A DNA stretch of 64,000 nt from assembly GCA_023227985.1 (NCBI GenBank), contig JALOCB010000004.1, positions 7,442 to 71,441 on the forward strand, in the 5' to 3' direction. Position numbers and translations under genes: made by a program. The notes beneath the pieces were generated by a model. That model ran no database searches and was not told where the DNA came from. It saw only the letters and a list, made by a program, of their open reading frames with translations. Of this stretch, positions 429 to 36,096 are shown piece by piece. The first letter of the stretch is position 1, and the number at the start of each line of letters is the position of its first letter. The stretch comes from Candidatus Omnitrophota bacterium. Its GTDB lineage: Bacteria > Omnitrophota > Gorgyraeia > Gygaellales > Profunditerraquicolaceae.

Positions 429-890
429 TTACGCGGCCGGGCCGGCCAGCCTCTGCCTGACCAGTTCGCTGACCAGTTTACCGTCAGCGCTACCCGCGAT
501 CCTGGCAAGGACTTCTTTCATCACCCTGCCCATATCCTTTATCCCTGACGCCCCTAAAGACGCCGCTGTTTCCTCGACGATCTTCTTTACCGCCTCAGCG
601 GAAAGCTCCTCAGGCAAATAGGCCTTTAATATATCCAGTTCTTTTTTTTCTTTCTCCGCCAGTTCGGGGCGGCCTCCGGAGGTAAATTGTTCAATGGAAT
701 CCTGGTGCTGTTTGATCATTTTTTTCACCACTGCCAGCGATTCCGCATCCTCCAGCTTGTCCTTCTTCTTTTCCAGCGCCGCATAGCTTATCTGGGCGCG
801 CAGAAAACTCAAGGTTGAAACAGCCAAAGCATTCTTGTTCTTCAACGCATTCTTATAATCGATCATTAACTTTTCTTCAAGCATAGTCAT
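429..890 (-). CDS. GatB/YqeY domain-containing protein
   Basis: The stretch MTMLEEKLMIDYKNALKNKN...VKKIVEETAASLGASGIKDMGRVMKEVLARIAG is typical of the YqeY family, which is about 150 aa long. The track ORF is extended to 971 through the adjacent hairpin-repeat array; that extension is probably non-coding, and the true start is the internal Met at about 890. Confidence 0.7.
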   Translation of the reverse strand: MTMLEEKLMIDYKNALKNKNALAVSTLSFLRAQISYAALEKKKDKLEDAESLAVVKKMIKQHQDSIEQFTSGGRPELAEKEKKELDILKAYLPEELSAEAVKKIVEETAASLGASGIKDMGRVMKEVLARIAGSADGKLVSELVRQRLAGPAA

Positions 891-906
891 CTCCTTGAGC
901 ACGGGC

Positions 907-1180
907 TCAACACCGACTTTTCCGATAAAGTCGGGTGTAAAATACCTCGTACTTAACACCAACCTTTCCAATCAGGTTGGGTGTAAATACCTTTGACTCA
1001 ACACCGACTTTTCCGATAAAGTCGGGTGTAAAATACCTCGTACTTAACACCAACCTTTTCAATCAGGCTGGGTGTAAAATACCTTTGACTTAACACCAAC
1101 CTTTTCCCGCAAAGGCGGGATACTGGCGTAACCATTTACGCCAGGTGCCAATTAGGCCGGGTGTATATTAGAATAACACC
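907..1180. repeat. tandem array of five palindromic hairpin units (ACACC-stem-loop-stem-GGGTGT), REP/BIME-like
   Basis: Units of about 45 bp alternate between two types: A (caacaccgacttttccgataaagtcgggtgtaaaatacctcgtactt, occurring twice) and B (aacaccaacctttccaatcaggttgggtgtaaatacctttgact, occurring twice), followed by one longer degenerate unit. Each unit is an inverted repeat. On the minus (sense) strand the loop reads AUCGGAAA. The array lies between the YqeY-like gene and the sugar kinase gene. Confidence 0.8.
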
Positions 1181-19252: not shown

Positions 19253-19489
19253 CTATAACCCCAGTGTCTTTTTTATCGTTTCTTTGTCAAATCCGATAAT
19301 GATCTTTCCGTCAATATCAATTACCGGCACGCCCATTTGCCCGGACTTGGAGACCATCTCATCGGCCTTTTGTTCATCAGCTCCGACGTCATAACTTTCA
19401 TAAGGTATTTTATTCTCGTTCAGGAATTGTTTCGCGCGCACGCAGTAAGGGCAGGTAGCTGTGCTGTAAACCAGGACTTTCTTGGCCAT
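19253..19489 (-). CDS. glutaredoxin (NrdH/Grx-like)
   Basis: The sequence runs MAKKVLVYSTATCPYCVRAKQFL...GVPVIDIDGKIIIGFD, a CPYC thioredoxin-fold protein. The track ORF has a spurious Gly/Arg-rich N-terminal extension. A GGGAGG ribosome-binding site precedes the internal ATG. Confidence 0.75.
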   Translation of the reverse strand: MAKKVLVYSTATCPYCVRAKQFLNENKIPYESYDVGADEQKADEMVSKSGQMGVPVIDIDGKIIIGFDKETIKKTLGL

Positions 19490-19503
19490 TTTCGCCTCCC
19501 TGT

Positions 19504-19965
19504 TCATTTCAAATGACGCGGGGTAAGGTCGACCGCCTCTTCGACCTCCATTACTATCATATACTGCGGCTTGGGGAACGCCGCCTCCGGATGCCGGCCG
19601 GCGCTTTTTTCTTCCCGGAGATCCCGGATTATCCGCTGGCTTATCTTTACCGCCACCTTTTCCTCCCAAAGCCTGGTAATATTCTCCGGGAGCTGGTTTA
19701 TTTTGACCACCCTGGCTTTTCCTTTAAGGCAATATCCCTGGAAGGAATGCTCATCAGCGGCAGTGATGTTCATCCGGGGATTCTTCTTCAGGTTGACGAA
19801 AGTATGCTTTAAGTAAAGATCCAAAAGATATACCCTGCCGGATTTATCCAGCTTGACTATGCTCTTGCAGGAGCTATTGACCCCGCCATTGTGATCAATG
19901 GTCGAAACGATCACAAAACTCTGTTTCTTAAAGAAATCGACTACTTCCTCGGAAAGGGCGCGCAT
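19504..19965 (-). CDS. pyridoxamine 5'-phosphate oxidase-like FMN-binding split-barrel protein
   Basis: The protein of about 150 aa has a PNPOx-like fold signature (FVIVSTIDHNGGVNSS...). The start position is uncertain. Confidence 0.55.
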   Translation of the reverse strand: MRALSEEVVDFFKKQSFVIVSTIDHNGGVNSSCKSIVKLDKSGRVYLLDLYLKHTFVNLKKNPRMNITAADEHSFQGYCLKGKARVVKINQLPENITRLWEEKVAVKISQRIIRDLREEKSAGRHPEAAFPKPQYMIVMEVEEAVDLTPRHLK

Positions 19966-19970
19966 ATCTT

Positions 19971-20366
19971 TTATTTCACTTCCAGCCGTTGCGAATTCTG
20001 CCAAAGGCCGTGGATGTTGCAATACGAAGAAACCAGGATCGTTCCCGGTTTATCGCTTAAAAAACTAAAGGCGAATTCCGGCCGGGAATAAACAGTGGAG
20101 GCATTCGGCCCCTGGGCGGATTCACCATGGCTGCAGGCCTCGAACCTGGCTATCTGGACCGGGAACTTTTCCCCGTCCGCGAGAAAATACGCCTCGATCC
20201 AGCGGATATGATGCTCTGTGGTGTTAGGATGCGGGATCTCTTTGCCTACGCTGAGTTTTACCTGCACTGCTTCGCCTTTTTTAGCTTCTGTCGCAGCCTC
20301 AATGACCGGGACGTGCTTTTCTTTCTTCCAATCCGCGTTCTGGAATAAATCCTTTAATTCAGCCAT
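19971..20366 (-). CDS. superoxide reductase (desulfoferrodoxin/neelaredoxin class)
   Basis: Contains KHVPVIE...HPNTTEHHIRWIE...C(N)xH, the SOR iron-site motifs. The true start is the ATG 5 nt after the AGGTGG Shine-Dalgarno sequence. The track ORF begins at a GTG inside the upstream palindromic repeat. Confidence 0.8.
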   Translation of the reverse strand: MAELKDLFQNADWKKEKHVPVIEAATEAKKGEAVQVKLSVGKEIPHPNTTEHHIRWIEAYFLADGEKFPVQIARFEACSHGESAQGPNASTVYSRPEFAFSFLSDKPGTILVSSYCNIHGLWQNSQRLEVK

Positions 20367-20376
20367 TTTCCACCTC

Positions 20377-20518
20377 TTGTGTAGAGACACAATACCAGCG
20401 CAATTCCGATTAGCGCTGGGTACAAATTACTATCTCAACACCCGCGCAATTCCGAATAGCGCGGGGTGTCAATTATTACCCCAACACCAACGCTATACCA
20501 ATTAGCGCCGGGTGCTAA
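20377..20518. repeat. 16-bp palindrome TTGTGTCTCTACACAA (sense strand) plus three ACACC...GGGTGT hairpin units, located in the 5' leader of the SOR gene
   Basis: The plus strand reads cttgtgtagagacacaa, followed by ccagcgcaattccgattagcgctgg, acacccgcgcaattccgaatagcgcggggtgt and caacaccaacgctataccaattagcgccgggtg. It belongs to the same family as the arrays at 907..1180 and 35041..35178. Confidence 0.8.
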
Positions 20519-20677
20519 TTACACCTTCTCGAACATATCCTTGCCCACTCCACATTCCGGACATACCCAGGTATCCGGAATATTCTCAAAAGCGGTACCA
20601 GGCTTGATCCCCGCCGCGGGATCGCCAACCGCCGGATCATAAATATAACCGCAGACAGTGCAGCGATATTTTGCCAT
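20519..20677 (-). CDS. rubredoxin (52 aa), missed by the ORF track
   Basis: Reverse-strand translation gives [52 protein letters not shown], with two CxxC pairs and the rubredoxin fingerprint. A GGAGG ribosome-binding site lies 7 nt upstream. The track's 68-aa ORF 20515..20721 is in a different frame. Coordinates are accurate to about 2 nt. Confidence 0.85.
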
Positions 20678-20686
20678 AGCCCCTCC

Positions 20687-21871
20687 TTAGATTTTCCCGG
20701 CGAATGATCTGCCGAATTCATAGCACGCGTTCAATTCATCAGTGTCCGGGACGAATTTAGCCGAAATAGAAGGCACTGCCAGCTCTATCCCTGAAAGCTT
20801 CACCACGTCTTCTATCTCTTTAACCGCGCCGCCTGCCCAGCCGAAAGACCCGAATACGCCGGCGATCCTGTTCTTGGCTTTAAAACCTTTGACCAGTTCC
20901 AGAAAACCGGAGATCTGCGGGAGCATATCATTGTCGTGCGTGGATGAGCCGAAAAGAAAACCCCGGGCATCGAGCATTTCAGTGATCACCTCGGTCCGGT
21001 CAGCCTGGTTTATATCAAAAAGCTGCACTTCCATCCCGGAATCGATCAACCCCCTGGATATGGCTTTGGCCATTTTCCCGGTCGATCCCCACATGGTTTC
21101 ATAGACTATCACTGTTTTGGCCGATGGCTTCTGGCCGGCCCAACCAAGGTAAGCTTTGATTATCTGAGCGGGATCGCTGCGCCAGATAAGCCCATGGCTG
21201 GGGGCGATCATTTTTATCGGAATGTTCATCTTCTGCACTTCTTCGATCTTGCGCAAAACCAATCCGCTTAAAGGCCAGAGGATATTGGCGTAATATTTCC
21301 TGGCTTCCTCCATTAAAACAGATTGATCCACCTGGTCGTTAAACCTGGCGGAAGTGGCGTAATGCTGGCCAAAGGCGTCGTTGGGCATAAGCATCTCGTC
21401 TTCCGGGATATAAGTGAACATGCTGTCCGGCCAATGCAGCATTGGAGCTTCCAGGAAAACAAGCCTGCGGCTGCCTAATTTTATCCCGTCGCCGCTTTTA
21501 ACCGCCTGAAAATCCCAGTCAGCGTAATAATGCTTATACAGGCCTTCTTTGCATTTCTGCGTTCCCAGCACTTTGGCCCCGGGGCATAATTTCATCAACT
21601 CCGGCATTGCCCCGGAATGATCGGTTTCCACATGATTGGCTATAACATAATCTATCTTTGCCGGATCGATCACTTCTTTGATCCTGGCGATGAATTCCGG
21701 AGCGAAAGCGGGCAGGACAGTGTCGATCAGCGCGATTTTGTCATCAACAATAAGATAAGAATTATAGGTTGTCCCTCTTTTAGTGGTGTAGGTATGGCCG
21801 TGGAAATTGCGCACGTTCCAATCCACCACGCCGACCCAATAGATCCCTTTCTTTATCTCCTGCGGTTTCAT
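20687..21871 (-). CDS. flavodiiron protein (rubredoxin:O2/NO oxidoreductase, FprA/ROO type)
   Basis: The 394-aa protein has a metallo-beta-lactamase-like diiron domain (HVETDHSGA...) and a C-terminal flavodoxin domain (TVIVYETMWGSTGKMA). Confidence 0.88.
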   Translation of the reverse strand: MKPQEIKKGIYWVGVVDWNVRNFHGHTYTTKRGTTYNSYLIVDDKIALIDTVLPAFAPEFIARIKEVIDPAKIDYVIANHVETDHSGAMPELMKLCPGAKVLGTQKCKEGLYKHYYADWDFQAVKSGDGIKLGSRRLVFLEAPMLHWPDSMFTYIPEDEMLMPNDAFGQHYATSARFNDQVDQSVLMEEARKYYANILWPLSGLVLRKIEEVQKMNIPIKMIAPSHGLIWRSDPAQIIKAYLGWAGQKPSAKTVIVYETMWGSTGKMAKAISRGLIDSGMEVQLFDINQADRTEVITEMLDARGFLFGSSTHDNDMLPQISGFLELVKGFKAKNRIAGVFGSFGWAGGAVKEIEDVVKLSGIELAVPSISAKFVPDTDELNACYEFGRSFAGKI

Positions 21872-31192: not shown

Positions 31193-31939
31193 TTAATATT
31201 TGTAATAATTAGCCGGTATGGTCTGTGAAATATACCGGATCGCCTCAATGATACAAATGCGTATAGCTTTTTCCATCGGCGTATTCGCGTAAGACGACAA
31301 CCCTCCGCCCAAAGCCCATCCGCCGAAAAACCCGGCCATAAAACCTCCCGAGACATCCGTAGCCTGGCCCTGCACCCGGGTAGCTGCCAGAACCTCAGAA
31401 GTCGCGGTGTCCACTATACGGATATCCAAGGCCATATGCGCTTTGTTCATCGAAGCGCCAAGCAGCCCTCCAAGAATACCGCTGCCTACTCCGCCGCCGC
31501 CGCCGATCCCGGCGCTTCCGCCGGACGCCTCAGGCTCGAACTCGGTCACCGCTGCGGTAATTATCAGATCCGCGGTTTTGATCTGGCCTCTTTGCGGACC
31601 GGCCCCCTGCTGGGCCGCGCCTGAAATTGATAATTCCTGTTCTTTCATTATCGCGTCCAAGACCTGCCGCTCGACTACCCGAAAACGATTACTGTTGACC
31701 AGCGCGGTTACTGTCATCTCTTTCAACCCCGAACCGATCTCGCCGGTAGCCTTGGCGGCCTTTACATCGAAATCAGCCACGGCAATGCGCGCCCGCGGAC
31801 CGGAATAAGGAGGCAAAGGCTCAGCGCCCGCGTTATTATCCACTCTCGCGCTGGGCTGGGTCAACTGCTGCAATGTTTCACAGCCGGAGATCCCGGCAGT
31901 CAGGAAGATGCAAAATATAAAACCTAATATCCTCTTCAT
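31193..31939 (-). CDS. CsgG-family lipoprotein
   Basis: The signal peptide and lipobox (LTAGISGC) are followed by RIAVADFDVKA... and a Gly-rich segment, with CsgG-like topology. Length is 248 aa. Confidence 0.6.
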   Translation of the reverse strand: MKRILGFIFCIFLTAGISGCETLQQLTQPSARVDNNAGAEPLPPYSGPRARIAVADFDVKAAKATGEIGSGLKEMTVTALVNSNRFRVVERQVLDAIMKEQELSISGAAQQGAGPQRGQIKTADLIITAAVTEFEPEASGGSAGIGGGGGVGSGILGGLLGASMNKAHMALDIRIVDTATSEVLAATRVQGQATDVSGGFMAGFFGGWALGGGLSSYANTPMEKAIRICIIEAIRYISQTIPANYYKY

Positions 31940-34818: not shown

Positions 34819-35031
34819 TTATTCCTTGGCTATAGCCAGGGTGATCACGCCAACCAGAATAAAGAACAACCCGACGCAACCCTTGATCAAAGCCAATAGA
34901 TAAAAGCGGCCTTTTAAAGTAAGGTACGCGCCGAGGGCTAAGAACGCAAGGCCTAAAATCACCTTGAATGCCATAGCCGCCGCCTTCTTGCACCCGCATT
35001 CCTTTTTCCCCTGTTTTGCCTCGTCAGCCAT
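34819..35031 (-). CDS. small membrane protein (about 70 aa, two transmembrane helices)
   Basis: The sequence begins MADEAKQGKKECGCKKAAAMAFKVILGLAFLALGAYL... The start is the ATG after the AGGAGG Shine-Dalgarno sequence. The track ORF begins at a GTG inside the upstream palindromic repeat. Confidence 0.4.
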   Translation of the reverse strand: MADEAKQGKKECGCKKAAAMAFKVILGLAFLALGAYLTLKGRFYLLALIKGCVGLFFILVGVITLAIAKE

Positions 35032-35040
35032 CCCACCCTC

Positions 35041-35178
35041 CTTGTGTAGAGACACAACACCGACGCATATTCCGATTGCGTCGGGTGTCAGTTCTCATTA
35101 CAACACCGACGCATATTCTCCGCCACGGGGCGGATACCGGCTTATTCCTATAAAGCCGGGTGCCGATTGCGCCGGGTG
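35041..35178. repeat. palindrome TTGTGTCTCTACACAA plus ACACC...GGGTGT hairpin units, located in the 5' leader of the small membrane-protein gene
   Basis: The plus strand reads cttgtgtagagacacaa, followed by caccgacgcatattccgattgcgtcgggtgt, a longer composite hairpin (caacaccgacgcatattctccgccacggggcgg...gccgggtgccgattgcgccgggtgt). Confidence 0.8.
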
Positions 35179-36096
35179 TCAATTCTCTTTCGGTCTGCTT
35201 TTCCATCTCCGGTGTATCCAGCTCCATTCCTGAGGATACCTGCGGATATAGGACTCGATTATTTTCGTTATCCTTTGAATATTGTTCACTATCGTCTCCG
35301 CCTCATCTTTGCCCTTGAGCAGATCTAAAGCCGGCTCGAACACTATCCGGTGCGTATCATCTTTCTGCCTGATAATAAAACACGGCAGGATCGCCGCGCC
35401 TGTTCTCTGGGCAAGGACCACCGGGCCGGTGGCAGTAGCCGCTTTTCTGCCGAAGAAATCCACGTATACGCCCGATGTCCCGAAATTCTGGTCAAGGGGG
35501 ATCAACAAAAGCCTGTTCTCCCGCAAAGCCTTTATGGTATTCGCGACGCAGGCTGTACGGGGAATACTGCTTATGGTATTTATATCCAATTTCGCCCGGT
35601 CAGTTTCAAAAAGTCCCTCTATTTGACGGTTCTTCAGCGGACGCATGATCACGCTGGTCTTATATCCATCAATACTGAGTTTTGCCAGCATTAACACAAA
35701 ATTACCGAAATGGCCGCTGACCAATATCACCCCTTTACCCTTTGCCAGCGCCTGATCAAGATGCTCTTGGCCTTCAATAGTGGAACTTGACCTTATAAAC
35801 CCCGGCCTGCCTATGACAAAAGCCAGCTCTGAGGAGGACTTGGCCATATAAATAAAACAATCCCTGGCAATCTTTTTGATCTCTGCCGGGCTTTTAGTCT
35901 TTCCAAAAGCATGGCTAAGCCCCTCAAAAGCCACCCGTCTATGCCTGGCCAAGAGCCAATATCCAACAGTCCCAAGTTTCTCAGCGAACAAATACAGGTT
36001 TTTCCGGGATATATGCCGTATTATCAATGAGCAGGCGATTAACGCAATACTGCTGAGTATATTAGCGAAAACTCTTTTTATTTTCTTAAGGATCAT
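35179..36096 (-). CDS. lysophospholipid/lipid A acyltransferase (LpxL/HtrB family)
   Basis: The 305-aa protein has an N-terminal transmembrane anchor and HFGNF within ...VSGHFGNFVLM, the acyltransferase HX4D-like region of the LpxL family. Confidence 0.7.
   Translation of the reverse strand: MILKKIKRVFANILSSIALIACSLIIRHISRKNLYLFAEKLGTVGYWLLARHRRVAFEGLSHAFGKTKSPAEIKKIARDCFIYMAKSSSELAFVIGRPGFIRSSSTIEGQEHLDQALAKGKGVILVSGHFGNFVLMLAKLSIDGYKTSVIMRPLKNRQIEGLFETDRAKLDINTISSIPRTACVANTIKALRENRLLLIPLDQNFGTSGVYVDFFGRKAATATGPVVLAQRTGAAILPCFIIRQKDDTHRIVFEPALDLLKGKDEAETIVNNIQRITKIIESYIRRYPQEWSWIHRRWKSRPKEN

Follow-up and report, generated by a model that had tools for sequence, protein, structure and literature searches.

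The window analyzed here, a stretch of 64,000 nucleotides from a Candidatus Omnitrophota bacterium (assembly GCA_023227985.1, contig JALOCB010000004.1, positions 7,442 to 71,441 of the forward strand), carries a tandem array of hairpin repeats at positions 907-1180, between a PfkB-type sugar kinase gene and a YqeY-like gene. The repeats belong to a hairpin module that is dispersed over genomes, gains new sites, and amplifies in place; it folds on the sense strand into two hairpins and occupies the gap that separates a gene's stop codon from the Shine-Dalgarno (SD) sequence of the gene that follows. The module is an apparently undescribed family of interspersed intergenic repeats of many Omnitrophota genomes. 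The array is probably a local amplification of this mobile-like module, which would be co-transcribed as an intercistronic or 5′-leader element of the same kind as the repetitive extragenic palindromic (REP), enterobacterial repetitive intergenic consensus (ERIC), and BOX elements.

Structure of the module and its arrays in the window

Ten units are found at three loci in the 64-kb window (Table 1). The basic hairpin, H1, is composed of the foot ACACC, one bulged C, an inner stem of 5-6 bp, the loop (U)AAUYGGAAUU, the opposite strand of the stem, and the foot GGUGU, followed by U. A 12-nt hairpin, H2, comes after the last unit of each array and normally lies 3′ of H1; it is followed by AAGGAG(G) (AAGAGGUGG in array 2) and then by the start codon. 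Array 1 (910-1164) consists of four 29-nt hairpins in the order A-B-A-B and one 72-nt unit. The sequence and Tandem Repeats Finder agree with the original prediction of a five-hairpin array in this region. Tandem Repeats Finder reports a period of 91 (2.2 copies, 94% matches, score 360) and also a period of 46 (4.4 copies) across 906-1107, which together reflect the alternation of the A and B units. The loops on the sense strand read AUCGGAAAA in the A units and AUUGGAAA or AUUGAAAA in the B units. The fifth unit is longer, as had been predicted, but its stem is not a different one: the foot and stem are the same, and a whole second unit is nested in the loop.

The recurrences proposed at 20394-20518 and 35058-35178 are arrays 2 and 3, at 20392-20515 (three units) and 35057-35179 (one small and one large unit), respectively. 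The skeleton ACACC-N18-36-GGGTG matches nine times in the window, against 0.74 expected, and none of 100 shuffles reaches nine. Seven of these matches are + strand units, another is a unit palindrome matched again from the opposite strand, and the ninth, at 31373, is unrelated to the hairpin family. An unfiltered covariance model search of the 64 kb gives no further significant copy (E < 0.01). The strong covariance-model matches in the window are all on the minus strand. Nearly all long gene-like open reading frames (ORFs) of the window (1-64000) are on the minus strand as well, and the shared orientation of repeats and genes, to which the original prediction had pointed, is therefore uninformative within the window.

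The folding strand is the minus, gene-sense strand. Imperfect pairs in the window units are always G·U on the minus strand and A·C on the plus strand. Folding by RNAfold, suggested earlier as a check, favors the minus strand in all three arrays, with sense versus antisense energies of −121.0 versus −101.4 kcal/mol for array 1, −72.3 versus −56.2 kcal/mol for array 2, and −67.1 versus −62.1 kcal/mol for array 3. The pairing is borne out by an alignment of 49 SD-proximal units, of which 46 come from other genomes, chosen by the search pattern and the SD only, and three from the window. In this alignment, 97% of the cells are paired, compared with 22-58% in slid controls, and double-sided changes occur at nine of the 14 pairs; none of 500 shuffles reaches the observed values. 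The foot of H1 is fixed by the search pattern and is thus uninformative for covariation. The informative pairs are those of the inner stem (pair 11/31 is GC in 22 units and CG in 20) and all four pairs of H2, each of which shows double changes. On the sense strand, G·U pairs number 18 versus four A·C mismatches. Within the window, unit 1 of array 2 has a compensatory change in the foot itself (GUACC/GGUAU). Sequence conservation in the stem and loop goes beyond the needs of pairing, and an identical 33-mer, ACACCCCGCGCUAAUUGGAAUUGCGCGGGUGUU, is repeated in many species.

The genes following arrays 1 and 2 encode YqeY (PF09424) and superoxide reductase (SOR, PF01880), respectively, and that following array 3 encodes a Cys-rich membrane protein of 70 aa, whose homologue in L088 bears the same leader (sequences outside the window are cited by such L numbers). 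Array 2 lies in a minus-strand oxidative-stress cluster at 19253-21871, composed of a flavodiiron protein gene, rubredoxin, array 2, class II superoxide reductase, a PNPOx-like gene, and a glutaredoxin-like gene, the order of which is preserved in a close relative.

Table 1. Coordinates of module units, adjoining elements, and related features in the window and in other sequences
Feature	Position	Strand	Remarks
Array 1, unit 5 (5′-most on the sense strand), composite large	1093-1164	-	ACACCC-GGCCU...AGGUU-GGUGU outer hairpin; begins 3 nt past the UAA (1168-1170) that ends the PfkB kinase gene
Array 1, unit 4, B type	1047-1075	-	ACACCC-AGCCU-GAUUGAAA-AGGUU-GGUGU; 17.3 bits; sense strand has a G·U pair
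Array 1, unit 3, A type	1001-1029	-	ACACCC-GACUUU-AUCGG-AAAAGUC-GGUGU; 30.6 bits
Array 1, unit 2, B type	956-984	-	ACACCC-AACCU-GAUUGGAA-AGGUU-GGUGU; covariance model match
Array 1, unit 1, A type, adjoins SD	910-938	-	Model R1 match 885-942, 55.4 bits, E 6e-14
Array 1, H2 (GAGC-CCGU-GCUC)	897-908	-	Read as GAGCCCGUGCUC; before the YqeY-like gene
Array 1, SD AAGGAG	891-896	-	Then AUGACUAUG (882-890), start of the YqeY-like gene
Array 2, three units	20484-20515, 20438-20469, 20392-20423	-	66.4, 42.5, 24.7 bits; between the rubredoxin stop codon (20519-20521) and the SOR gene
Array 2, H2 GUGUCUCUACAC	20379-20390	-	Then SD AAGAGGUGG (20370-20378) and SOR AUG (20364-20366)
Array 3, large composite unit	35103-35179	-	Overlaps by its first base with the UGA that ends the acyltransferase gene
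Array 3, small unit	35057-35088	-	Model R1 match 35032-35092, 60 bits
Array 3, H2 GUGUCUCUACAC	35044-35055	-	Then SD AAGGAGGGU (35035-35043) and AUG (35029-35031)
PfkB-YqeY gap, window species	192-284 nt		Array of 3-5 units
PfkB-YqeY gap, relatives 84-86% identical in YqeY	about 145-283 nt		Arrays of differing composition
PfkB-YqeY gap, relatives 64-70% identical	9-27 nt		No unit; e.g. UUUUAG-GGAGGGGAU-AUGACG
Large and small unit pair, apparently antisense to flanking genes	L065:2094-2249, L036:3635-3784, L050:760-909		ORF context judged by eye
2-3 units and H2, then intrinsic terminator	L024:~2440-2560; L128:~800-990	+; -
Mini-palindrome	L065:2155-2172, L078:949-966, L116:15-32, L124:4932-4949		Variants in L019 (~3840), L061 (~4600), L088 (~6080)

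Distribution of the family and its position relative to genes

Rfam 15 gives no match at the gathering threshold, either for the window or for 18 loci that have strong copies, and E-value searches of Rfam with array 1 and one canonical copy give chance-level matches only; the original prediction had likewise found the family unlike any that it recognized. No description of the element was found in the searchable Omnitrophota literature or by a literal search for the unit sequence. A scan of one genome per species (185,579 species) with the pattern ACACCC-N5-7-ATYGGAA-N4-8-GGTGTT gives at least 120 matches, and the counts of assemblies and of the 62 loci described below rest on the genome-scan matches listed. 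About half of these listed matches are stemless chance matches in unrelated phyla. The bulged-C stem in the gene context of the family is found, among the matches listed, in Candidatus Omnitrophota/Omnitrophica metagenome-assembled genomes (MAGs), and the complete genome of Velamenicoccus archaeovorus has two loci among them. Positive assemblies number at least about 39 among the matches listed, so that the repeat, with its covarying structure, is not confined to the three loci of the window.

The other structured matches listed come from MAGs named "uncultured Planctomycetales" and from L119, a 2.2-kb contig binned as Bacillota. The MetK protein of one such "Planctomycetales" MAG (L080) is 84-87% identical to proteins all named Omnitrophota, which makes the label of L080 a misnomer. 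The module-bearing MAGs deposited as "uncultured Planctomycetales/Planctomycetia bacterium" are L019, L024, L057, L076, L080, L087, L105, L106, L124, L126, and L128; judging from the one tested (L080), their taxonomic labels are probably wrong. Homologues of the window YqeY and SOR are named Omnitrophota, and the window PfkB protein is also found in GCA_028711865.1 and in contigs from JGI and ENA.

About 11 further separate loci occur in 449 kb of other Omnitrophota DNA. Extrapolation gives an estimate, rather than a count, of some 50-100 loci per 2-Mb genome. The identity of H2 is 0.72 within genomes versus 0.49 between them, indicating genome-specific subfamilies.

Two groups of look-alikes were set aside. 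Eight pattern matches in viral contigs are devoid of the bulged-C stem of the family and look like chance; in one of them (L003), the foot is short and unbulged and the gene context is unlike that of the family. A hairpin in Clostridia, ACACCCGAGGGCUAUUGGAAUUCCUCGGGUGUU (L020, L072:3126-3158, L117), has conserved flanks, no Rfam match, and an unrelated context.

The pattern scan is blind to gene context, and the position of the module was assessed at 62 loci or arrays. An SD is in place at 51 of them, and the orientation along the genes, uninformative in the window, thus holds across other genomes. An SD together with a start codon (ORF of at least 40 aa) lies 19-33 nt past H1 at 45 of the 62 loci, and neither is found at six. 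The nearest upstream ORF is co-directional at 46 loci and divergent at 11. In about 24 loci, the upstream stop codon is within 6 nt of ACACCC, and the junction takes the form UAG|ACACCC, UAAG|ACACCC, or UGA sharing its A with the unit. The positions of the stop codon and the SD indicate that the module typically fills the whole gap between them. Most loci in other genomes have a single unit. Orientation tracks the gene even where opposed genes lie within one 8-kb locus (L025, L061). This register with the SD and start codon was missed in the original prediction, as were H2 and the nested nature of the large unit.

The downstream genes have little in common. A Pfam scan of 20 downstream proteins matched 19, all of different families (L35, L20, DnaN, IlvC, MlaD, phosphoglucomutase, ExbD, ThiS, transaldolase, EIIA, SHMT, P-II, cyclophilin, PstS-like, TPP enzyme, CspA, ACP, GAPDH, and MetK), which excludes a pathway-specific riboswitch. 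The leader is present at orthologous genes in two species for dnaN, rplT, mlaD, an EIIA-like gene, and the gene of the Cys-rich membrane protein.

Promoter and terminator scans of arrays 1 and 2 gave chance-level results. A TTGGTA-18-AATAAT match formed by the unit loop and the spacer, which would make the unit a promoter, is not conserved in other genomes, and a −10 box in H2 is excluded by the covariation of H2. Some copies in primary 5′ untranslated regions (UTRs) begin ~0-10 nt past a good −10 box, as in L105 (TTGTGA-16-TATAAT-7-ACACCC); with the −10 box at this distance, H1 would sit at the 5′ end of the mRNA.

Gain, amplification, and nesting of units

The gene order BacA-PfkB-YqeY-PG_binding-GH1 is kept among relatives, and the content of the PfkB-YqeY gap varies among them (Table 1). 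At the rubredoxin-SOR junction, the window has three units between UAA and AGGUGG. In a relative with SOR 92% identical and flanking DNA 86-89% identical to the window, this junction is a gap of 16 nt (UAA-GAAAGGUGGUGUGAAA-AUG) with no unit. The empty syntenic junctions in relatives indicate that arrays 1 and 2 are lineage-specific gains into a tight stop/SD junction. A metagenome scan for a rubredoxin-SOR junction with one unit gave 57 matches, all of them chance matches.

The start of YqeY also differs between filled and empty sites. In the array lineage (882-890 in the window), it reads AAGGAG-AUGACU-AUG-CUU, with an extra AUG 6 nt past the new SD, and in the empty-site relatives (L137:~1501, L139:~1501) it reads AUGACGUUAGAA or AUGACGCUUGAA. 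Judging from these sequences, the YqeY start codon may have shifted after the insertion of the array.

Assemblies of the same species have three, four, or five units at PfkB-YqeY. This difference may be a real polymorphism, the alternative being collapse in short-read assembly. The joins between units differ by genome: they lie after ...AAG in L026 and L114, inside H2 in L019, L036, L065, and L102, and after an SD-like GAGG plus spacer in the window. Such differing tandem register points to growth by local duplication and not to repeated precise insertion. AAG stands directly 5′ of ACACCC in 15 of 67 units, versus a background of 2.1%, and the units end in ...CAAG ahead of GAGG. These AAG flanks may reflect a preferred target, or else a short duplication, at UAAG^GAGG.

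In a large unit, one unit lies whole within the loop of a second. Two large units are found in the window, and others in L029, L036, L050, L054, L061, L102, and L134, all built on one plan: the 5′ half of an outer H1, AUYGG, CACC, helix P2, GUAUC/GUGUU, helix P3, (G)AGAAU, and the 3′ half of the outer H1. P2 is built like an H1 in its foot, bulge, stem, and AU-GG-AAUU loop, and P3 is of the size of H2. In the large unit of array 1, CACC-P2 hairpin-GUAUC-P3 hairpin-GA is located inside the outer loop. The inner parts match the unit model R1 by themselves, at 35112-35167 with 26.6 bits (E 1e-5) and, separately, at 1095-1152 with 13.1 bits. The three helices are 97.8% paired over nine large units from at least seven genomes, and both P2 and P3 show compensatory changes. 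L135 has a second nested unit that is different from the others, and nested units turn up repeatedly with differing inner sequences. Nesting of this kind is not readily produced by tandem duplication alone.

Likely role of the module and alternative explanations

The family is one of interspersed intergenic hairpin repeats that behave like REP and bacterial interspersed mosaic elements (BIMEs), mycobacterial interspersed repetitive units (MIRUs), and Neisseria REP2, and it lacks defining features of each. The REP, BIME, and REPIN (REP doublet) elements of Proteobacteria are accompanied by REP-associated tyrosine transposases (RAYTs) (PMC2817692, PMC3116915, PMC3479197). They resemble the module as short imperfect palindromes forming a stem-loop with a mismatch or bulge, extragenic, multi-copy, and clustered, often inside operons and co-transcribed, with a dynamic evolution within the genome; at 29-33 nt, extragenic and multi-copy, the Omnitrophota units agree with REPs in these respects. 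However, REPs alternate in orientation (BIME, REPIN), whereas the units of the Omnitrophota arrays are all direct, on one strand (window, L019, L026, L036, L038, L054, L102, L114, L135). REP families are also species- or genus-specific and have no fixed register to the SD or start codon, whereas the Omnitrophota module has such a register and a consensus common to at least about 39 species. Miniature inverted-repeat transposable elements (MITEs) have terminal inverted repeats, whereas the module starts with ACACCC and ends with ...H2-CAAG, its palindromes being internal. The original description as a dispersed palindromic intergenic repeat is thus borne out by the many genomes, gain and loss, copy number, and nesting, but the filing under REP/BIME or MITE is not supported, since alternating orientation and terminal inverted repeats are absent and the consensus is kept in at least about 39 genomes. 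The presence or absence at the orthologous PfkB-YqeY and rubredoxin-SOR junctions is a likeness to mobile repeats in general.

MIRUs (Supply et al. 1997, as summarized in PMC3184786) are also direct tandem units of ~46-100 bp, intercistronic, oriented with the genes, and transcribed in polycistronic mRNA, which the module would share. They are missing from the corresponding site of relatives and differ in copy number among strains, as is also seen for the module, whose copy numbers come from short-read assemblies. MIRUs bear small ORFs overlapping the neighboring stop and start codons, whereas neither module period (46 or 91) is divisible by three. No frame is conserved in the array, and the only ORFs that run through it are frame-shifting artifacts. 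A strongly covarying hairpin dominates the module, in distinction from MIRUs, and is kept throughout a phylum. Neisseria REP2 (Morelle et al. 2003) and the inverted repeats (IRs) of Borrelia (Dunn et al. 1994), both as summarized in PMC3184786, are dispersed repeats that directly precede many unrelated genes and include or adjoin the ribosome-binding site (RBS) before the ATG. REP2 is ~120-150 bp long with its own promoter and confined to one genus; the module is ~46 nt long with no consistent promoter, often starts at the stop codon of the preceding gene, builds arrays, and is self-nesting. BOX, ERIC, and Correia elements are intergenic repeats that fold into stable RNA and are transcribed (PMC3184786), as the module would be; BOX has a variable number of tandem boxB modules, and ERIC and Correia alter the stability or processing of flanking mRNA via RNase E or RNase III (PMC3184786). 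They differ in having terminal inverted repeats or distinct end modules and a length of at least 100-150 bp (PMC3184786), in inserting at TA or other targets, and in being restricted to a genus or family, whereas the module has no such ends and occurs at the stop/SD junction. Unusual in the module are the sharing of a single consensus by at least 39 species within one phylum, the strict coupling to the SD, and self-nesting.

On the reading that we prefer, a ~46-nt stem-loop module would have been tandemly amplified in place to give the array. Modules enter the gap between the stop codon and the SD in sense orientation, multiply on the spot, and can nest inside one another, and this DNA-level behavior is well supported. 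They would be co-transcribed with the flanking genes, as suggested by the lack of room or signal for separate promoters or terminators, and form self-contained mRNA hairpins that leave the SD exposed. In folding predictions, the SD and start codon are unpaired with a probability of 0.54 in native leaders versus 0.44 in shuffled leaders of the same composition, the native value being higher in 34 of 45 cases (Wilcoxon p = 3e-5). Such hairpins would stop exonucleases or serve as a processing mark, and would shield the RBS behind them from the sequence ahead. By analogy with the REP, ERIC, BOX, and Correia elements (PMC3184786), an mRNA stabilizer, a processing mark, or an RBS insulator would be the most economical function.

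Several points weigh against this explanation. Processing, stabilization, and insulation are suggested by analogy and by folding predictions. The G·U asymmetry fits a hairpin of sense-strand single-stranded DNA (ssDNA), as on the lagging-strand template, as well as it fits RNA. V. archaeovorus and relatives have apparently antisense copies (L065, L036, L050), and the copies in L024 and L128 end in a terminator and not in an SD; the latter could be small-RNA or 3′-UTR copies of the module. The counts of three, four, and five units come from short-read assemblies, which can collapse tandem repeats, and contigs L132 and L133 break inside the array. No clean target-site duplication is readable, empty and filled sites being 11-35% diverged, and no transposase or other mobilizing gene was identified, though no search for one was made in the 64 kb. 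Moreover, the near-identical 33-nt consensus exceeds what a passive hairpin needs, which hints at a sequence-specific partner.

This conservation, together with the GGA in the loop, keeps a specific RNA-binding partner alive as the main rival. H1 would then be the operator of a phylum-specific RNA-binding protein that controls many mRNAs as a Csr/Rsm-like post-transcriptional regulon, which we regard as possible but rather doubtful. The protein would read the bulged-C stem and the GGA loop, possibly bridging to the GGA of the SD; arrays would serve multivalent binding, and the terminator-ended arrays would be sponge RNAs. A bulged hairpin is a classic protein-binding site, and the conservation of stem and loop well beyond pairing, with the same 33-mer in many species, counts in the same direction. 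The loop AUYGGAAU carries GGA, and a second GGA, in the SD AAGGAGG, is ~33 nt downstream in most copies; this is in part built into the search pattern, but most copies found only by the model keep the GGA. In this, and in the multi-hairpin arrays, the module resembles CsrA/RsmA leaders and CsrB/RsmZ, in which hairpin loops ahead of the SD, and within it, carry GGA. The two or three units followed by an intrinsic terminator, with no gene, in L024 and L128 and the leader kept at orthologous genes from dnaN to that of the Cys-rich membrane protein also agree with a regulon. It is difficult to reconcile with arrays 1 and 2, which are recent insertions that orthologues do without, as would be unexpected for an operator, and with the upstream units of arrays, which drop the loop GGA (AUUGAAAA, AUUGGUAU). 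The bases flanking the GGA in AUYGGAAU differ from the CsrA consensus A(N)GGA, and the stem sequence and bulge are conserved in the module but not in Csr targets. A tblastn search of ~1.2 Mb with E. coli and B. subtilis CsrA found no csrA-like gene, a weak test on a small sample, and no candidate binding protein has been identified. A combination of mobility and regulation, in which a portable, mobile translation-initiation leader homes to stop/SD junctions and its hairpin, with the 33-nt consensus common to the phylum, is read by a conserved Omnitrophota-specific RNA-binding regulator or endoribonuclease, would recruit genes into a genome-wide circuit with the terminator-ended arrays as decoys. 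We hold this combination to be quite improbable; if true, it would be a mobile cis-regulatory element spreading a regulon, a mechanism not known to be documented in bacteria at such scale.

For the mobility step, an ssDNA mechanism with a Y1 transposase stays in play on account of the bulged hairpin, the AAG flanks, and the nesting. Taken further, the module would be selfish DNA and nothing else, of the REP/RAYT or IS200/IS605-PATE (palindrome-associated transposable element) type, and its RNA would have no function: H1 would be an ssDNA hairpin, a Y1 (HUH) transposase would insert it 3′ of an AAG-like target in UAAG-GAGG junctions, and the adjacency to the SD would reflect target choice and tolerance only. 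The AAG enrichment and the ...CAAG end before GAGG form a left-flank and right-end arrangement of the sort that IS200/IS605 elements use. Gain and loss at orthologous sites, nesting, and genome-specific subfamilies favor this explanation too, as does the bulged, strand-asymmetric hairpin, which is as in IS608 and REP substrates (PMC3479197). Nevertheless, we think it unlikely, since at least about 39 species have the consensus in common, whereas a REP family normally changes from one species to another together with its RAYT (PMC2817692, PMC3686654). The units are always direct and never inverted pairs, H2 covaries yet is unlike H1 and is thus not a second copy of a transposase hairpin, and array unit boundaries vary between genomes, against precise ends. 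The orientation follows the gene even for opposed genes in one locus, and the leader is retained at orthologous housekeeping genes across species.

For a ligand-sensing riboswitch or a self-cleaving ribozyme, with the large unit as the full form and the small hairpins as degenerate ones, one could cite the conserved three-helix junction with its joining strands AUYGG-CACC, GUAUC, and GAGAAU, its covariation, and the 5′-leader site. The junction is, however, explained by nesting, as the inner part matches the unit model by itself, and the genes downstream belong to 19 unrelated families. No Rfam class matches, the hammerhead, twister, pistol, and hatchet cores are absent (by eye, against known consensus), and no expression platform is seen: the SD is never sequestered, arrays 1 and 2 have no terminator signal, and native leaders raise the predicted accessibility of the SD. 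This possibility is very remote. Direct tandem repeats of ~46 nt just upstream of a co-oriented gene might also recall a processed clustered regularly interspaced short palindromic repeat (CRISPR) array or a type III toxin-antitoxin (ToxI-like) array whose small RNAs are cut by a nearby nuclease, and toxI arrays have units of 36-45 nt. We give this next to no credence, as the spacers are 13-16 nt long, conserved, and themselves repeated instead of unique, in keeping with the earlier dismissal of CRISPR; the downstream genes encode YqeY, SOR, a membrane protein, and housekeeping proteins and not ToxN/AbiQ-like nucleases, and most loci in other genomes have a single unit.

Other candidates were rejected. 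A transcription-factor operator, that is, a DNA palindrome, is at odds with stems that covary and with G·U exceeding A·C on one strand. A sigma-54 promoter and a K-turn do not fit the known consensus (by eye). Integron attC sites have an inverse core RYYYAAC and a core GTTRRRY at their ends, with a cassette ORF between sites; the sense 3′ side of the unit is GGUGUU-GUCU... and not GTTRRRY (core checked by eye), and the tandem units have no ORFs between them and lie among housekeeping genes.

The Omnitrophota are uncultured, mostly ultra-small bacteria, and we know of nothing on their control of gene expression. The ~60-nt module of hairpin, hairpin, and SD offers an experimental handle and a direct route into Omnitrophota mRNA biology, as it precedes genes for ribosomal proteins, dnaN, GAPDH, ACP, cspA, metK, and others in dozens of species. 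Being phylum-deep, sense-oriented, and locked to the RBS yet still gaining sites, it raises the question of whether small mobile repeats can distribute a translation leader or a regulatory site. The covariance model R1 could seed an Rfam family.

The arrays also affect annotation, as gene callers extend ORFs through them and short-read assemblies break or collapse there. Public gene calls run the YqeY-like gene through the array in the window (429-971), in L131 (5097-5639, 180 aa), and in P0002 (194 aa). The mis-extension suspected in the original prediction is confirmed for the window, where the ORF at 429-971 has a TTG start and 180 aa versus 149-152 aa in homologues; the lengths of 180 and 194 aa are annotation artifacts of ORFs called through the repeats.

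A second mini-palindrome of ~20 nt, CCUGCCU(G/A)CCGG(C/U)AGGCAGG, is found in several Omnitrophota genomes and is not in the window (Table 1). It is sometimes nested within a module unit or within H2.

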